Of a stretch of 64,000 nt of DNA, positions 37,744-45,133 are shown in pieces. Under the pieces are notes generated by a model. The model was given only the letters and a program-made list of their open reading frames with translations. It was not told the DNA's origin and did no database searches. Every line of letters starts with the position of its first letter. Position 1 is the first letter of the stretch. The stretch lies in the NCBI RefSeq assembly GCF_058153355.1, contig NZ_CM177019.1; one strand, given 5' to 3'. Both the position numbers and the translations under genes were made by a program.

Positions 37744-38393
37744 GCCGCCATCTCCCTGACCAGTTTTTCCGCCTGCTGGCGAACCTGCGCCAGAAAGGCC
37801 TCACCACATGCCTCAAGTTCATCGCGCCCGATGTAGCTGATTGCCGGTCCCTTCCAGGTCTTGTCGAAAACAACAATAGCACCAGCGAAGAAAGCGCCTG
37901 TCGGCACCTGCTTCTCGTCCTTCGGTATAAACCAGGCAGGCAGTTCAAAACCAATACGCCCGCGAATAAAAGCAATATGATCTGCATCTTCCGGCCACCA
38001 CACTTCGCTGGTGGCAGCTTTGATCAGGAAAACATAGCGCCCGCCTTTATCACGCATGGCACTGGCATGTTTCATGATGTAACGCATGCCGGTGATGTAT
38101 TGCCCCTCATGCTGACTGGCGCGGCTGTATGGGGGATTACCAAAGGCAGCACCTTTAAGCTCCGCAAGACGTTCTGACCAGTCATGCGCCAGCGCGTTGT
38201 CTTCCGCCGTGTAATACGCGGCACATTTGGCGTTATCACCGTCAGTGAACAGATCCAGAACAAACGGACCAAACAAGGTGTTAATTCCCCAGAAAATGTT
38301 GTCCGGCGTGCGCCACTGATCGCCCACTTCCTTCAGTTCATGGGCTGGTTTGTTCCGCAGTTCTACCAGCGCCTGGCAATATTTATTACTCAT
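37740..38393 (-). CDS. phage N6-adenine DNA methyltransferase (Dam-like)
   Basis: 217 aa with FGNPPYS catalytic motif; typical lambdoid nin-region methylase. Confidence 0.8.
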   Translation of the reverse strand: MSNKYCQALVELRNKPAHELKEVGDQWRTPDNIFWGINTLFGPFVLDLFTDGDNAKCAAYYTAEDNALAHDWSERLAELKGAAFGNPPYSRASQHEGQYITGMRYIMKHASAMRDKGGRYVFLIKAATSEVWWPEDADHIAFIRGRIGFELPAWFIPKDEKQVPTGAFFAGAIVVFDKTWKGPAISYIGRDELEACGEAFLAQVRQQAEKLVREMAA

Positions 38394-38487
38394 TAAGCCC
38401 CCACGTAAAAAGCATCCGCAATGTCTCCGGAAGTACAGCCCGGATGGGCTTCAATGAATTTCTGAACGTCATTTAACAGACTCATGA

Positions 38488-39480
38488 TCACCCCCTGAAT
38501 CCTGCCGGGATCTGGCTGTAGTCCACGTTGTCGTAACTGGCTTTGAAGTACGGGTCTTCACGTTTTTCTGTGTGCGTGCTGACGGACGGCGATAAGCGCA
38601 GGGAAAGCTCATCCCATTTTTCCCGCAACTTCGACGGGCTGAGCACGTTACGGCACCAGAACGGATCGCGGCTGACGCGGCTGTACATCTCGCAGATTTG
38701 TTTGTGAGTACGACCATCCTGCACACACATCAGGCGAATTTCGTTTGCCCATGCTGTCCAGTTCGGTTCTTTGGGACGAACCACCTCGCCGTCACATTCG
38801 GCGGCCTGCTCGTACAGGGCGATGATTTTTTTCCAGAGCCACTGTGCGCAGGTCAAATCATCCTGCGTTCCCCACTGGCGCTTTTTAGGGCTGAATACAA
38901 CCGCATCAGGATGGCGAGTTAAAAACTCCTGTTCAGCCGTTTGCGTGTCCGGTTGCGAAGCGTCCGGACGAGAAGAGGTTTTATTCTCTGTAGTAATCTC
39001 TGTTGTATTCTCTGTAAGATCATTGGGCCATTTTGACCCGATGACAGCGTGTCGTTTTGAACCAATGGATCGTGTCATTTTGCGCCCATCCATCAGGTCA
39101 CTTTGACCCGATGGAGAAGTGCATTTTGACCTGATGGATTCGTTCACTTTGACCTCTTCTAAAAGCTCACTTTCATAGTTGATCGTGTAGAAGTTGGTCA
39201 TGTCACGCTTCGATTTATTGAGTTGCTCGCGACGCAAAACCCCAAGTGATTTCAAGCTTGCAAATGTGCGTTTCAGAGTGGACTCTGACCAGAACGGAAA
39301 CTGCTCCAGCCACTGTTCTGTCGTGTTATAAACCCAGCGAATTCCGCCATGCTCTGTGCCTGAATTCGTTTCATTCAGCCAGTAATGAAGCTGCTGCAAC
39401 ACAATTGCCTCATTCAGACCAATACGGCATGCAAGATCACGATTTATCACAATGGGCTGGGATGTCATTAACAGGCTCAT
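38488..39480 (-). CDS. replication initiator/replisome organiser with DnaT-like C-terminus; origin iterons embedded
   Basis: 330 aa; internal iterons; C-terminus ...NVDYSQIPAGFRG mirrors the host DnaT C-terminus ...[10 protein letters not shown] present in this window. Confidence 0.7.
   Translation of the reverse strand: MSLLMTSQPIVINRDLACRIGLNEAIVLQQLHYWLNETNSGTEHGGIRWVYNTTEQWLEQFPFWSESTLKRTFASLKSLGVLRREQLNKSKRDMTNFYTINYESELLEEVKVNESIRSKCTSPSGQSDLMDGRKMTRSIGSKRHAVIGSKWPNDLTENTTEITTENKTSSRPDASQPDTQTAEQEFLTRHPDAVVFSPKKRQWGTQDDLTCAQWLWKKIIALYEQAAECDGEVVRPKEPNWTAWANEIRLMCVQDGRTHKQICEMYSRVSRDPFWCRNVLSPSKLREKWDELSLRLSPSVSTHTEKREDPYFKASYDNVDYSQIPAGFRG
39028..39157. repeat. phage replication origin iterons: six direct repeats, core TTTGACC(C/T)GATGG, ~23.5 bp period
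   Basis: Repeat cores start near 39031, 39055, 39078, 39101, 39125 and 39148; located inside the initiator gene as lambda ori is inside O. Confidence 0.7.
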
Positions 39481-39489
39481 GACCGACCT

Positions 39490-39828
39490 CTATTTCCCTG
39501 AATTTACGACGAAACTGTTCGAGCGGACTGAAGCATTCATGTTCATAGCCTTCACGGAGGTAGATAACCCGTTGTGTTTCCGGCTCCCAACGAATGACTC
39601 TGACGGGCACTCCGTAGTGATCTTTGAACCAGCGGTTAACTTGTCGCAAAGGACTGTCTCCTTCTGCCGGTTGAAATCACCCACAGCCCACTCTGCAAAG
39701 CTGTGGGTTACAATTTCCCTGTCACCTGGTACATTCACTGCATAGCAATACTCCACCTTCGCTTTTCCACCCGGTACAGGAAGCGCAATCAGTTGCGAGC
39801 GACGGTAGTGTGTTGTTAAACTGTTCAT
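39490..39828 (-). CDS. hypothetical early protein
   Basis: 112 aa; ATG overlaps the stop of the upstream gene (ATGA coupling) and the stop lies 9 bp before the initiator start. Confidence 0.5.
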
Positions 39829-40409
39829 GCGTTAGTTTCTCCACAGACACAAAACGCCACGACGCCCGGAGCTGCACACTCGCGGGCGTCACTCTTTTCT
39901 GGAGCGCAAAAGATTTTGTAGACCAGTGCTGCATGCTCCTGGAGCTTCGAAATTGACAGATACAACTCATCATTAATTACTGTCTGCTCGTGTGGCTCCA
40001 CTACCCCATCTTCGATTGCCGAACGAATCTGCTTTGAGTAACTCCCGATCTGTTCGATGACTTCCAGCAGACGCTGGTTTATATCGGCGTTCTCTACTTC
40101 CTCAATTTCAGGAAGCGATACAAACACCCCACCAGCAGACTGTGCGACAGCATCCGCAATGTAGTGAGTGCCAGCCGCGCGCTGTAAAATCATTGCCCAT
40201 CCCAGCGGGAAAATCTGATCGCCATCTGCACGAAGGCGGTTGAATAAAGCGTTCTCTGTTACATCCAGCCACTCAGCAGCTTCAGCGTAACCTCCCGGCA
40301 ACGCCGCGATAGTTTTTCTGACAGCTTTCACGTACCACTCAGGCTGTTTTTCTACTTTCCAGTGATGCTTACCCACGGCTATCTCCTTAAAACTGTGGTT
40401 ACTTTCCAT
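39825..40409 (-). CDS. early regulatory protein (YdaT/CII-like position)
   Basis: 194 aa directly downstream of the Cro-like gene; resembles Rac-type YdaT as far as memory allows. Confidence 0.5.
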
Positions 40410-40647
40410 CAGATAAGTCTTTAATCTTTTGAAAAATATCTGGACGTAATTTTTCTTTTGATACGCCAGTGGTCATTTCAATGAATATCGAGAGCTTTGC
40501 AGGGGGACGCTTTTCTCTGTTCAACCAGTTCCAGACATGTTGTTGCTTTACTAAACGACCACTGCTGGCTGTGAGCTTCCGAGCCAATTCTGATTGACCA
40601 CCAGCCAGAGCGATTGCCTCTGATAAGGCTAATTGCTCAGGTGTCAT
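40399..40647 (-). CDS. Cro-like HTH regulator (YdaS-like)
   Basis: 82 aa, divergent from the CI-like repressor across an operator region. Confidence 0.7.
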   Translation of the reverse strand: MTPEQLALSEAIALAGGQSELARKLTASSGRLVKQQHVWNWLNREKRPPAKLSIFIEMTTGVSKEKLRPDIFQKIKDLSDGK

Positions 40648-40650
40648 AGC

Positions 40651-40784
40651 TTTCTCCTATCTGTAAGTAGTAAAGTTGTTGATAACTTCGATTATACAAC
40701 TACAACAACTTTTATTACAACTTTTAGATGTTGGAAAGCTAAAACATAAAGTTGTAACCTCAATAAAAACGAGGGGGATATGTT
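40651..40784. promoter_or_regulatory. OR-like operator/promoter region with repeated AAGTTGT / ACAACTT half-sites
   Basis: Divergent intergenic region between cro-like and cI-like genes with at least four copies of the heptamer in both orientations; the same motif recurs at 41650..41700. Confidence 0.55.
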
Positions 40785-41471
40785 GTGAAAACATTGGCAG
40801 AAAGACTAAAAAGCGAAAGAGAAAAAGCAGGAATGAGTCAGGCGCAACTAGCTGAAAAAATTGGACTTTCACAACAATCCGTAGCGAAAATCGAGAATGG
40901 AGAAACTCAACAGCCTCGGAAAATTAAAGAGATTGCTAAAGTGTTAGGGGTTTCTCAAAAGTGGTTGCAATTGGGCATTGAGGATAACGCGTCTTTCCCA
41001 AACCTTGTTGTAAAGGAGGCTGAAAGTACAACATTAGATCCTGACATTTTTGCAAACATTCCTGTCCTAGATGTCGAATTATCAGCGGGTAATGGATGTT
41101 TGGCTGAAATAGTTGAATCAACTGTAGACTGGTTCCCGCTAAGAAGGATTGATTTAAGGAAAGCTGGTGTATGTGTCTCCAATGCAAAGATCGTAAAAAT
41201 TTGGGGTAATAGTTTACTACCTGTACTTAACAATGGAGATTTTGTTGCTGTTGATGTTTCCCAAACAGTTCCTATTCGTGATGGGGATCTTTATGCTATA
41301 CGTGATGGCGTATTACTTAGAGTTAAAATATTGATCAATTTACCTGACGGTGGTCTGATTCTAAGAAGTTTCAATAAAGATGAGTATCCAGATGAAATAC
41401 TCACCTTCGAAGATAGGCGTTCCAGAATTCACGTTATAGGTAGAGTATTCTGGTCATCGCGCACTTGGTAA
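40785..41471 (+). CDS. CI-like repressor (HTH_XRE N-domain + S24 LexA-type peptidase C-domain)
   Basis: 228 aa; GMSQAQLAEKIGLSQQSVAKIENG HTH; C-terminal domain with Ser (GNSLLP) and Lys (RVKIL) typical of autocleaving repressors; GTG start with SD GAGGGGG. Confidence 0.85.
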   Translation: MKTLAERLKSEREKAGMSQAQLAEKIGLSQQSVAKIENGETQQPRKIKEIAKVLGVSQKWLQLGIEDNASFPNLVVKEAESTTLDPDIFANIPVLDVELSAGNGCLAEIVESTVDWFPLRRIDLRKAGVCVSNAKIVKIWGNSLLPVLNNGDFVAVDVSQTVPIRDGDLYAIRDGVLLRVKILINLPDGGLILRSFNKDEYPDEILTFEDRRSRIHVIGRVFWSSRTW

Positions 41472-41649
41472 TGCATCAAAAACATTCCTTCAGAAATTTA
41501 GTTACCATTATTACCCGCCTTTTCAATCTTCCTCCCGTGATTTGAGAGTTTCCAATCACGGAAGGAAAGTGTCCATTGTGTAATTAAAAGCGCATCGTCC
41601 ATACAACCTCCTTTTTTGATAACCCTAGCCCCCATTTAACATCCGTCAA

Positions 41650-41700
41650 AACCACATAAAGTTGTTGACAACAACCAAAACAACAACTAGATTACAACTT
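41650..41700. promoter_or_regulatory. OL-like operator region (AAGTTGTTGACAACAACC palindrome and further ACAACTT copies)
   Basis: Same heptamer family as the OR region, located downstream of cI and upstream of the plus-strand early-left genes. Confidence 0.5.
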
Positions 41701-41803
41701 AAAGATGTTGCAGTAACGAACAGGCAGGACGCCCACGAAGTAGCCGCCGGTGGCGTATGAATGACCGGATGATTCGTTAAATACTATGTGTAAGAGAGCG
41801 CAA

Positions 41804-42006
41804 ATGAACCGTTATTTCACATGCTCGTTTTGTGGCGCAAACGAGCTGCAGGCAAAAAAATCATCGCCAAAGGCGGAAAAGATGAAGTTGCTATCTGCTC
41901 TGAGTGCGTAGTCTTGTGTGTTGGGGCATTAATCAATATCAGCACAACTATTCAGTTCACACCAAATGAGAATGCGCCTTTAGATGCGCGGAAATCTGGA
42001 GGTTAA
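41804..42006 (+). pseudogene. ClpX-N-type C4 zinc-ribbon protein, reading frame split at an A7 tract (41854..41860)
   Basis: Frame A: MNRYFTCSFCGANELQAKK...; frame B continues ...IIAKGGKDEVAICSECVVLCVGALI. The joined sequence has CxxC-N18-CxxC; a -1 shift at A_AAA_AAA connects the frames. Confidence 0.5.
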
Positions 42007-42098
42007 AGAACAAAATGAAAGTCCAGATTTTAAACAATAACTGTGAAGTCGTTTGGGCGTAAAACATGACCGCGCGTAGACCAAGGGAGGAAAAAGTG

Positions 42099-42272
42099 GG
42101 AATAGTTAGAAATCAAGCAGATATATTGAAAATCAGCTCTGAATTGCTTGGAGTTTTGAAAAGTGAGCTCACCGCACATGGCATCGAGCCCACTGACGAA
42201 AATTTAAGTTGGGTTTTGTCGATTATTCAACAATCACTCAAGCCCAGCCTCAGCAAACTTTTTATCGAGTAG
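42099..42272 (+). CDS. small hypothetical early protein
   Basis: GTG start with strong SD AAGGGAGG; 57 aa; 3' end overlaps a convergent minus-strand ORF. Confidence 0.4.
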   Translation, partial: GIVRNQADILKISSELLGVLKSELTAHGIEPTDENLSWVLSIIQQSLKPSLSKLFIE

Positions 42273-42425
42273 TGCTTCGAACTTATCGTAAAGCTTGCTT
42301 ATGTCGTCTATCGGGTTTTCTGACGTACTGTAATTTTTATCTGATGTCATGGCAGCAGTCTGATATGCAGTGTGAGTCTTAACCGATAGTTGGAATAAAT
42401 AAAGAATTTTTTCTTCTTTGGTCAT
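42234..42425 (-). CDS. small hypothetical acidic protein, convergent and 3'-overlapping
   Basis: 63 aa (MTKEEKILYLFQLSVKTHTAYQ...), SD AAGGAA, low GC. Confidence 0.45.
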   Translation of the reverse strand: MTKEEKILYLFQLSVKTHTAYQTAAMTSDKNYSTSENPIDDISKLYDKFEALLDKKFAEAGLE

Positions 42426-42863
42426 AACTATTTCCTTCTTGGCTATATGAAAACACCAAGATACCACCGAGCCTGAAGTGGTGAAAAGACAGGCACATAA
42501 CAGCTAAGTATTTTCAACCAGAGAGAATCCTTAGCGTTGTGGTGAATGCGGCTCAGCGCACGCGGGTTAAGGTTGAGGTTGACAGTCGACCTTCTGTGGA
42601 TACCCACCCGCCTGGTGTGCAACCTTCGCCAGGCACCGGGAGGCACCCGGCACCACAACTTTATGCTGTGTGTAGTCCTCGCGGTACCAGTTTGTACACT
42701 TGCTTCCGGCTGGTACCGCTCTTTTTACAAAACAGAGAAGGGCATCACCGGACGACGGGCTCATAACCCAATCCATCCGGGCGGCTGCCACCGCAGGTGT
42801 TCTTCTCTGTTTTGTGGAGAAACCAACCGACCTTGCAGGGTCGATATGATGAGGAGCAGCAAA

Positions 42864-43226
42864 ATGGCTAGCGAACGCAGTACTGATGTGCAGGCATTTA
42901 TCGGGGAGCTGGACGGCGGCGTATTTGAAACCAAAATCGGCGCAGTTCTCAGTGAAGTCGCTTCCGGTGTGATGAACACGAAAACCAAAGGTAAGGTCTC
43001 GCTCAACCTGGAAATCGAACCATTTGATGAGAACCGTGTGAAAATCAAACACAAACTCTCATATGTTCGCCCGACTAACCGCGGGAAAATTTCCGAAGAA
43101 GACACCACCGAAACACCGATGTATGTCAATCGCGGTGGTCGCCTGACTATTCTGCAGGAAGACCAGGGACAATTACTGACTCTTGCCGGTGAACCTGACG
43201 GAAAACTACGCGCAGCAGGTCATTAA
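42864..43226 (+). CDS. hypothetical early protein (YfdP-like size and position)
   Basis: ATG at 42864 with SD GAGGAG; 120 aa MASERSTDVQAFIGELDGG...; the upstream part of the track ORF is judged non-coding. Confidence 0.6.
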   Translation: MASERSTDVQAFIGELDGGVFETKIGAVLSEVASGVMNTKTKGKVSLNLEIEPFDENRVKIKHKLSYVRPTNRGKISEEDTTETPMYVNRGGRLTILQEDQGQLLTLAGEPDGKLRAAGH

Positions 43227-43291
43227 TATCGTTCTTAATTAACTGATTATTTATCTCATCACTGAATATCTTTATATAGTGAGGACTTATT

Positions 43292-44116
43292 ATGTCTCAG
43301 AACTTAGACGCAACCGCAATTAATCAAATCCATGCCCTTATTTCTGCTCAGGGTGTTAATGAAATTATTAGTAAGATTGGTGCCGATGCTGTGGCATTGC
43401 CTGAGAATTTCCGCATTCATGATCTGGAAAAATTTAATTTAAATCGCTTCCGTTTCCGTGGTGCGCTTTCCACTGCCAGCATCGATGACTTTACCCGTTA
43501 TTCTAAAGATCTTGCAGATGAAGGCACCCGCTGCTTTATCGATGCCGATAATATGCGTGCCGTCAGTGTGCTTAACCTGGGTACTATTGATGAACCAGGT
43601 CACGCAGATAACACCGCCACTCTCAAACTGAAAAAGACAGCACCGTTCTCTGCTCTGTTGTCTGTTAATGGCGAGCGTAACTCCCAAAAGTCACTGGCAG
43701 AATGGATTGAAGACTGGGCCGACTACCTTGTGGGCTTTGATGCTAATGGTGACGCCATTCAGGCAACCAAAGCGGCTGCGGCGATCCGTAAAATCACAAT
43801 TGAAGCGAACCAGACCGCTGATTTTGAAGACAATGACTTCAGCGGCAAACGCTCCCTGATGGAGTCTGTCGAAGCGAAGACCAAAGACATTATGCCAGTG
43901 GCATTTGAATTTAAATGCGTTCCGTTTGAAGGCCTGAAAGAACGTCCGTTTAAATTACGCCTCAGCATTATCACTGGCGATCGTCCTGTACTGGTTCTGC
44001 GCATTATTCAGCTGGAAGCGGTGCAGGAAGAAATGGCTAACGAATTTCGTGATCTGCTTGTTGAGAAATTTAAAGACAGCAAAGTAGAAACCTTTATTGG
44101 TACTTTCACCGCCTGA
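43292..44116 (+). CDS. YfdQ-family protein (DUF2303-like)
   Basis: 274 aa, the same length as CPS-53 YfdQ; part of a YfdP/Q/R/S-like gene set. Confidence 0.6.
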
Positions 44117-44243
44117 TTTCATTACTGCAAATGCCCCTGCGGGGGCATTTATGGAAACATAATTTACTCAATAATCGCCGGATGGTGAGGGCTTCCTTTT
44201 ACCAGAATTCAGCGCGGTGCAGCGCATATACGTGGAGAACAAA

Positions 44244-44780
44244 ATGTCATTTATTAAAACTTTTTCCGGGAAGCATTTTTATTATGACAAGATAAATAAA
44301 GACGACATCGTTATTAACGATATCGCGGTTTCCCTTTCAAATATCTGTCGCTTTGCAGGGCATCTTTCACACTTCTACAGCGTCGCCCAACATGCGGTGC
44401 TTTGCAGCCAGCTGGTACCGCAGGAATTTGCTTTTGAAGCGTTAATGCATGATGCAACAGAAGCATATTGCCAGGACATCCCCGCACCACTGAAACGACT
44501 TCTTCCTGACTATAAACGGATGGAAGAAAAAATAGACGCCGCAATCCGTGAGAAATACGGGTTACCCCCAGTTGTGAGTACGCCCGTGAAATATGCCGAT
44601 CTCATCATGCTGGCAACCGAACGCCGCGATCTCGGGCTTGATGATGGCTCTTTCTGGCCTGTACTGGAAGGCATCCCGGCAACAGAGATGTTCAACGTGA
44701 TTCCACTGGCACCGGGTCATGCCTACGGGATGTTTATGGAACGTTTTAACGATTTATCGGAGTTACGCAAATGCGCATGA
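44244..44780 (+). CDS. HD-domain 5'-deoxynucleotidase (YfdR-like)
   Basis: ORF 44217..44780; start MSFIKTFSGKHFYYD gives 178 aa; HD-like residues (HAVLCSQ...MHDATEAYCQD). Confidence 0.7.
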   Translation: MSFIKTFSGKHFYYDKINKDDIVINDIAVSLSNICRFAGHLSHFYSVAQHAVLCSQLVPQEFAFEALMHDATEAYCQDIPAPLKRLLPDYKRMEEKIDAAIREKYGLPPVVSTPVKYADLIMLATERRDLGLDDGSFWPVLEGIPATEMFNVIPLAPGHAYGMFMERFNDLSELRKCA

Positions 44781-45133
44781 ATGTTTTCGAAATGGAAGGG
44801 TTTCTTCGCGGGAAATGTGTACCGCGAGATCTGAAAGTGAACGAAACAAATGCTGAGTACCTGGTACGTAAATTCGACGCGCTTGAAGCTAAATGTGCGG
44901 CACTGGAAAACAAAATAATACCAGTGTCAGCTGAACTGCCACCAGCAAATGAAAGTGTTCTGTTATTTGATGCTAATGGAGAAGGCTGGCTGATTGGCTG
45001 GCGTTCTCTCTGGTACACCTGGGGACAAAAAGAAACCGGAGAATGGCAGTGGACATTTCAGGTCGGGGACCTTGAAAACGTCAATATCACTCACTGGGCA
45101 GTAATGCCAAAAGCACCGGAGGCTGGAGCATAA
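44771..45133 (+). CDS. hypothetical protein (YfdS-like)
   Basis: 120 aa; overlaps the upstream stop. Confidence 0.5.
   Translation: MRMNVFEMEGFLRGKCVPRDLKVNETNAEYLVRKFDALEAKCAALENKIIPVSAELPPANESVLLFDANGEGWLIGWRSLWYTWGQKETGEWQWTFQVGDLENVNITHWAVMPKAPEAGA

Follow-up and report, generated by a model that had tools for sequence, protein, structure and literature searches.

Within the window (the whole 64-kb stretch of DNA that was analysed), a prophage immunity region carries a very short ORF on the minus strand, which lies between a cI-type repressor gene and OL-like operators with the PL promoter (~41650-41710) and is convergent with cI. The features that define this setting are as follows.

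40399-40647, minus strand: gene for a YdaS-type Cro.
40785-41471, plus strand: gene for a cI-type repressor of 228 aa, with HTH_3 and Peptidase_S24 domains.
41498-41602, minus strand: ORF of 34 codons, translation MDDALLITQWTLSFRDWKLSNHGRKIEKAGNNGN*.
41529-41567, on both strands: stable hairpin with 17-nt arms and a 5-nt loop.
41607-41612, minus strand: Shine-Dalgarno (SD) sequence, AGGAGG.
41654-41710, plus strand: OL-like operator repeats and PL promoter, from the promoter scan and repeat families D2, D3, D4 and D7.

An earlier note on this DNA had drawn attention to the ORF for its near-perfect SD, for the 8-bp inverted repeat that it spans and for its place between cI and the OL-like operators, and each of these observations was confirmed. 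The ATG is located at 41602-41600 and is preceded by AGGAGG (41612-41607) at a spacing of 4 nt (TTGT), an arrangement (AGGAGG-N3-9-ATG) found four times in the whole window when both strands are counted. A longer version of the ORF, with 45 codons and a start ATG at 41635, was considered and rejected, as it has no SD and its ATG falls inside the spacer of a predicted promoter that is described below. On the plus strand, the promoter scan placed a PL-like promoter, TTGACA-17-TAGATT, at 41665-41693 (-35 at 41665-41670 and -10 at 41688-41693), and operator-like repeats were common to OL and OR, the latter region covering 40671-40755.

Several observations concern the early region on the far side of PL. 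The segment of about 60 nt just past PL (41715-41780) is invariant between E. coli and Citrobacter prophages, and this PL leader is the only part of the region common to about 1,400 E. coli records and phages SfII, SfV, ST64B and mEp460; it showed no unusual fold (z +0.6) and had no match in Rfam. The first gene of the PL operon (41804-42007, plus strand) encodes a ClpX C4-type zinc-finger protein, which has 67 aa in K-15KW01 and IR53017. In the window, one homopolymer of this gene reads A7 and not A8, and the resulting -1 frameshift splits the gene into ORFs 41786-41911 and 41821-42006; this represents either a real inactivation or a sequencing error. Further along, the sequence at 42506-42728 (plus strand) matched the Rfam sRNA STnc100 (RF02076), with 49.8 bits against a gathering score of 47 and an E value of 1e-8.

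The 34-aa peptide had no match in Pfam, even at E<=10, and no hydrophobic segment was found in its sequence, and the 45-aa form matched phrog_3989 alone (positions 252-272, E 0.006). Rfam, searched at E<=1 across 38000-45000, gave no match at the ORF locus. When 50,697 phage records were searched by megablast and blastn, the interval from cI through the ORF was unmatched, and the PL leader from ~41715 onward was the only shared part. The cI-to-PL interval did match E. coli chromosomes, and some of those alignments were split by an insertion annotated as 'BRCT domain-containing protein'. PGAP annotated no gene at this place in any of the seven RefSeq loci inspected that carry the same form of the interval, and some other annotation pipelines label the 34-aa or the 45-aa ORF as a hypothetical protein.

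In E. coli IR53017, whose cro-OR-cI-OL-PL region is the same, the slot of the tiny ORF is occupied by a BRCT gene of 296 aa. This gene uses the strand opposite cI in the interval from cI to PL, and its 3' end covers the final 18 nt of cI. Alignment of the window with IR53017 showed that the upstream region, an A-run, the SD, the ATG and the first codons are shared; a gap of about 710 nt then follows, beyond which the two are collinear again as far as the cI overlap. The anatomy of the remnant was taken from alignments to full-length alleles at two loci (L003 and L014), the second of which (P0003 type) is the closest full-length allele found, its cI differing at 40 of 687 nt and 5 aa.

According to these alignments, the window retains the promoter region of the BRCT gene together with its SD, its ATG and its first 4 codons. 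A deletion of 7 nt (gene positions 11-17), located between CGCTTT direct repeats, shifts the frame, and a second deletion of 713 nt takes out gene positions 34-748; the two add up to 720 nt, and the frame is therefore restored. After the 713-nt deletion, 58 nt are kept that code for original residues 251-269, and later deletions comprise 12 nt (in-frame), 4 nt, 5 nt and 1 nt, the last being specific to the window. The stop codon (GGT AAC TAA) is made by the 4-nt deletion. Read codon by codon, codons 1-4 of the ORF represent the start of the BRCT gene itself, codons 5-9 are original codons 6-11 read out of frame, codon 10 is the deletion junction, codons 11-29 correspond to residues 251-269, and codons 30-34 correspond to residues ~274-278. 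About 240 codons are gone, and with them the entire N-terminal helical domain and the greater part of the BRCT fold. The original stop codon TGA is found at 41456-41454; as in annotated relatives, the ancestral ORF ran into cI and covered its last 18 nt. Two more features belong to the remnant.

41454-41497, minus strand: untranslated remnant of the BRCT gene's 3' end (ISEEMLFDALPS.R*), interrupted by the 5-nt and 1-nt deletions.
41622-41649, minus strand: degenerate predicted promoter of the former gene, TTGACG-16-TAGGGT, based on conservation; it is back-to-back with PL and beside an operator repeat.

The position and orientation of the remnant are those of the gene family, which is convergent with a cI-type repressor of HTH + S24 type, overlaps it at the 3' end and lies upstream of PL. 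In addition, tblastn of the BRCT protein matched the alleles of this form (L097-L110 and L152) at residues 250-296, with E values of about 1e-8. We regard the tiny ORF as very probably a pseudogene relic of the BRCT gene, and not a small gene in its own right. What was observed directly is that the ORF is homologous to the BRCT gene, has undergone these deletions, carries substitutions at invariant residues and is confined to one lineage, and this bears out the idea of an incidental ORF, which the earlier note had kept as an alternative. Both the strong SD and the hairpin would then have come down from the 296-aa gene and would not be adaptations of a small gene.

The course of events may be reconstructed as follows. 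A prophage ancestor would have borne a minus-strand gene of ~296 aa between cI and PL, encoding an N-terminal helical-repeat domain and a C-terminal BRCT domain, with a promoter of its own, placed back-to-back with PL, with a strong SD and with a 3' end that overlapped that of cI. Slippage between the CGCTTT repeats would, in one lineage, have deleted 7 nt, and this loss and the internal deletion of 713 nt would have removed residues ~12-250, the frame being restored fortuitously (7 + 713 = 720 nt). Deletions of 12, 4 and 5 nt would have come subsequently, along with the 1 nt specific to the window, and the 4-nt loss would have created the present stop. What would remain of the gene is its old SD, its ATG and 34 codons.

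The parent gene belongs to phrog_3989, which is annotated as 'BRCT domain-containing protein' (for example, WP_000389078.1), and its match to phrog_3989 is full-length. The family includes 354 proteins at E<=1e-5 across Enterobacterales, the 120 best being 68-100% identical, and its members range from 279 to 304 aa. Pfam BRCT (PF00533) was assigned to residues 206-290 of the parent (E 1.3e-6). An AlphaFold model of the parent (pLDDT 84.6) consists of helices to residue ~180 and then a BRCT fold, which matches the BRCT domains of LigA, RFC1 and XRCC1; the N-terminal domain matches generic helical bundles only. The parent also showed a partial match to the PADLOC candidate PDC-S48 (residues 119-251 to model positions 239-377 of 411, E 2.4e-7), which may be taken as a hint and not as a classification. 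Literature searches on prophage or defence BRCT proteins, on the K139 BRCT protein and on PDC-S48 found nothing relevant.

In IMG/VR, loci with homologues of this cI (L097-L176, of which 79 were usable; 58-100% aa identity) carried downstream either the BRCT gene (64) or the same relic (15) in 79 of 79 cases, and Citrobacter koseri has the same convergent, overlapping pair of cI and BRCT genes. Such a distribution suggests that the BRCT gene is a fixed component of the immunity module and not a sporadic moron.

Compared with this family, the relic has neither a full-length protein of ~290-300 aa nor a recognisable BRCT domain (PF00533). Its retained residues read TLSFRDWKLSNHGRKIEKA where the family has TLSSRDWKFSSHGRKIEKA, and the family motif TLSSRDW(K/R)FSSHGRKIEKA is not intact. 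Three substitutions, S254F, F259L and S261N, fall on conserved positions: across 119 homologues, ranging from E. coli to Plesiomonas, neither S254 nor S261 varies, and conservation at F259 is 90% or more. The relic was found in 23 of 5,426 complete E. coli genomes, and the full gene in 47. All 23 of those relic-bearing genomes, as well as 15 IMG/VR contigs, have an identical junction, and since the junction is the same in every relic copy, the relic represents a single deletion event and a single lineage. Conservation of the reading frame in homologous phages, which the earlier note had named as the point on which its small ORF would stand or fall, was checked and is absent: every cI-homologue locus outside the relic lineage has a gene of ~290-300 aa instead.

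Nine haplotypes of the relic were distinguished. Among them, the SD was weakened twice independently (GGAGG to GTAGG and GGAGG to GAAGG) and the -35 element was mutated once, and the sole polymorphism within the ORF is a radical W/G change at the junction codon. Polymorphic sites thus number 1 in 105 nt inside the ORF, compared to about 9 in 84 nt of the immediate flanks. The ORF is intact in every relic copy found, and the SD keeps the consensus in most copies; since the copies differ by just 1-2.5%, the intact ORF carries little statistical weight. The lower diversity of the ORF may come from recombination, by which flank variants resembling full-length alleles would have been imported, and the restored frame weighs little, as its chance is one in three.

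A further copy of the same immunity region with the relic was seen in the 37.7-kb circular 'plasmid unnamed3' of E. coli CX04, where it contains many small insertions and a broken cI annotated as a 132-nt fragment, the CX04 chromosome carrying a clean copy. This record is probably an error-rich assembly of a circular phage copy.

As regards the SD, AAAAAAGGAGG(T/C)TGTATGGA is invariant upstream of the full-length alleles in E. coli and Citrobacter koseri. Full-length alleles across genera keep TTGAnn-17-TGcAAGGAT, with an extended -10 element, despite a variable spacer; in the relic, the TG is lost and G replaces A at position 5 of the -10 element. This promoter of the BRCT gene is predicted from conservation and was not listed by the consensus promoter scan. 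It is arranged back-to-back with PL, the predicted starts being about 85 bp apart, and an invariant operator repeat (TGTCAACAACTTTATGTGG) lies between the two -35 elements. Such a PR/PRM-like geometry suggests that the BRCT gene would be expressed in the lysogen in a repressor-dependent manner. The weakened promoter of the relic may still yield a short transcript antisense to the 3' region of cI, and the relic peptide itself is presumably functionless.

The inverted repeat spanned by the ORF needs to be considered separately. Its 8-bp part, CCGTGATT (41535) and AATCACGG (41554), is the core of a longer repeat with 17-nt arms (41529-41545 and 41551-41567, 88% complementary), which forms a stem of 15-17 bp. 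For the minus strand, the hairpin has a folding energy of -23.0 kcal/mol (z -5.2), and for the plus strand one of -18.4 kcal/mol (z -4.5); none of 200 shuffles was as stable. The window contains 52 perfect inverted repeats of 8 bp whose loops measure 3-20 nt, which amounts to about 0.09 per 105 nt. The hairpin comes from BRCT-coding residues L252-K265 and is inherited, being present in about 25 diverged full-length alleles of the parent gene, where it lies inside the coding sequence, 85-90 nt ahead of the stop codon.

Among the alternatives, the one that holds up best is compatible with a relic and adds to it: the ORF would be incidental, and the hairpin would be a functional RNA element serving the convergent cI and BRCT units, for example as a stem-loop for the 3' end or stability of cI mRNA, or as a site of pausing or processing by which antisense overlap is limited. 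This part of the relic would, in that case, be kept intact by selection on the hairpin. We put this forward tentatively, as a possibility with less than even chances. In its favour, natural alleles fold far more stably than synonymous recodings on both strands, the recodings having been drawn using the codon usage of the family itself. The 27 unique full-length alleles had a mean fold of -17.9 kcal/mol in the BRCT sense and -20.8 kcal/mol in the cI sense, compared to -8.8 and -6.7 kcal/mol for recodings of the hairpin segment, and the median fraction of recodings at least as stable was 0.01 and 0.00, respectively. On the cI-sense strand of 12 diverged alleles, the hairpin window was the most extreme, with z from -3.4 to -6.9, below every other window of the gene; the other windows average z about -0.1, which indicates that the window test is unbiased. 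Synonymous sites favour the hairpin, and do so more strongly on the cI-sense strand.

Covariation was looked for across the same stem. In the pair count, 80.8% of cells were paired, compared to 39-52% in slid controls, and one-sided C/U and A/G changes preserve G-U pairs on the cI-sense strand. However, compensatory two-sided changes were found in none of the pairs, and shuffling of the partners gave an equal percentage paired, so that there is no excess. RNAalifold, run on a 217-column alignment of 27 alleles, did not recover the hairpin and returned an implausible long-range structure, and 6 of the 10 inner pairs are fixed by the invariant amino-acid motif RDWK/SSHG. Within the relic, the hairpin is invariant in 9 of 9 haplotypes and all later indels lie outside it, but no more than 6 nt separate the hairpin foot from the end of the 713-nt deletion, an arrangement that fits a palindrome acting as deletion endpoint equally well as selective retention. 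Three substitutions specific to the relic fall in the stem and were considered as a sign of selection for greater stability. This argument was dropped: the cI-sense fold of the relic (-18.4 kcal/mol) is no stronger than that of the full-length alleles (about -21 kcal/mol), and the paired double change replaces a C-A mismatch by a G-U pair in only one of the two strands.

A functional hairpin would also find support in one locus, L083 (3203-3419), in which a canonical terminator (AGCCCGG-loop-CCGGGCT, flanked on both sides by A/T runs) separates the BRCT allele from a divergent cI homologue that does not overlap it. This is the only allele that has no internal hairpin (-8.7/-5.9 kcal/mol, p ~0.6 vs recodings), although the contrast is a single case. 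The hairpin is also present without a convergent cI in L096 (-17.9/-16.9 kcal/mol) and, in a weaker form, in K139. A link between the hairpin and a convergent cI is therefore not established: L083 fits it, L096 and K139 do not.

A bolder combination, which we regard as doubtful, would make the hairpin a selected RNA element, with a role at the 3' end, in stability or against collision, and the BRCT protein an obligatory partner of lysogeny, acting in rex-like exclusion or in the sensing of DNA ends. The partnership is suggested because every cI homologue recovered carries either the BRCT gene or the relic. If true, a selected hairpin would explain why this part of the relic stays intact.

The earlier note had also offered the hairpin as a cI terminator. 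Taken as a canonical Rho-independent terminator of cI, or a bidirectional one, which the ORF overlaps by chance, this is very unlikely. Such a very stable stem-loop, 56 nt past the cI stop and upstream of PL, does lie where PRM readthrough would need stopping. Nevertheless, past the stem the plus strand reads AAGUGUCC and the minus strand AUUGAAAAGG, and because neither strand has a U tract, the hairpin is not a canonical intrinsic terminator. The promoter/terminator scan was silent at the hairpin, giving just a weak 5-bp candidate within cI (41419-41402, minus strand), and since the ORF is homologous to a known gene, the overlap is not by chance. What stands of the proposal is a conserved feature of the parent gene that is favoured more strongly on the cI-sense strand and may have a role in the cI transcript.

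The least likely reading is the regulatory or exclusion peptide that the earlier note had envisaged, here taken as newly made from BRCT remains and kept by selection: it could draw on the consensus SD at 4-nt spacing, on an ORF intact in all relic copies with its frame restored by 7 + 713 nt, and on the hypothetical-protein labels of some pipelines, but the ORF is pieced together from parts of a 296-aa gene, some in frame and some not, with 5 codons out of frame and a stop due to a 4-nt deletion; it is confined to one young E. coli lineage; its SD is weakened in two haplotypes and its junction codon is polymorphic (W/G); its -10 has drifted from the family consensus and its -35 is mutated in one of nine haplotypes, translation signals thus not being under purifying selection; its 19 retained BRCT residues, changed at 3 conserved positions, cannot form the domain; and the peptide contains no hydrophobic segment.

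The ORF, as a relic of the BRCT gene, descends from an already known and annotated gene family and is ordinary in this respect; as a candidate small gene, it is of no importance. It does show that an internal deletion can leave behind a strong SD and a clean short ORF, which is a warning against calling micro-proteins on such features. We believe that two threads are worthwhile: the hairpin, which has synonymous-codon support and is a possible element for managing convergent transcription at the 3' end of a repressor gene, and the association of this cI family with the BRCT gene.

The closest known system is phrog_3989 itself (WP_000389078.1 and its relatives). The relic is the same in the upstream region, the SD, the ATG and the first four codons; it is homologous at residues 251-269 and in the degraded 3' end, and it occupies the same place and orientation relative to cI and PL. 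It differs by ~240 missing codons, further indels, a premature stop, changes at invariant residues and the absence of a Pfam BRCT domain. As for the hairpin, it resembles intrinsic and bidirectional terminators in being a stable, GC-containing stem-loop where convergent units meet, and is unlike them in having no U tract and, in the parent, in lying within coding sequence.

The position of the relic also invites comparison with lambda rexA-rexB, genes which lie between cI and OL/PL, are dispensable for repression and are co-transcribed with cI from PRM. The earlier note had recognised this as the rex slot, and in relatives of the window this slot indeed holds an accessory gene linked to lysogeny. 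The BRCT and rex genes agree in map position, and both are accessory genes, presumably lysogen-expressed in the case of the BRCT gene. Judging from its tight linkage to the repressor, the parent protein would be expressed in the lysogen and have an accessory role comparable in position to that of lambda Rex. There is no homology to RexA or RexB here, Pfam giving only BRCT on the parent and nothing on the relic. Unlike rex, the BRCT gene is on the strand opposite cI with its own predicted promoter and is not co-transcribed, and in the window it is dead.

Vibrio phage K139 provides a more distant relative. Its Orf2 is a homologue of the parent protein, with 32.6% identity across 95% of the length (E 1e-38), and no demonstrated function of Orf2 was found in the literature searched. 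The orf2 gene (3453-4358 in L010) is next to the repressor in the order cI-orf2-glo-int, annotated as the lysogenic operon, and adjoins the exclusion gene glo. It is intact and co-directional with cI, whereas the ancestral gene at the present locus was convergent with cI and is now only a relic. The order repressor-...-BRCT-integrase in L096 (2492-3367) resembles that of K139, in co-directional units of P2-like elements. The uncharacterised phrog_3989 accompanies one cI family at all of the recovered loci and, in P2-like phages, is associated with repressor-integrase operons, and this linkage makes it a reasonable candidate for a lysogen-expressed function in exclusion or defence.
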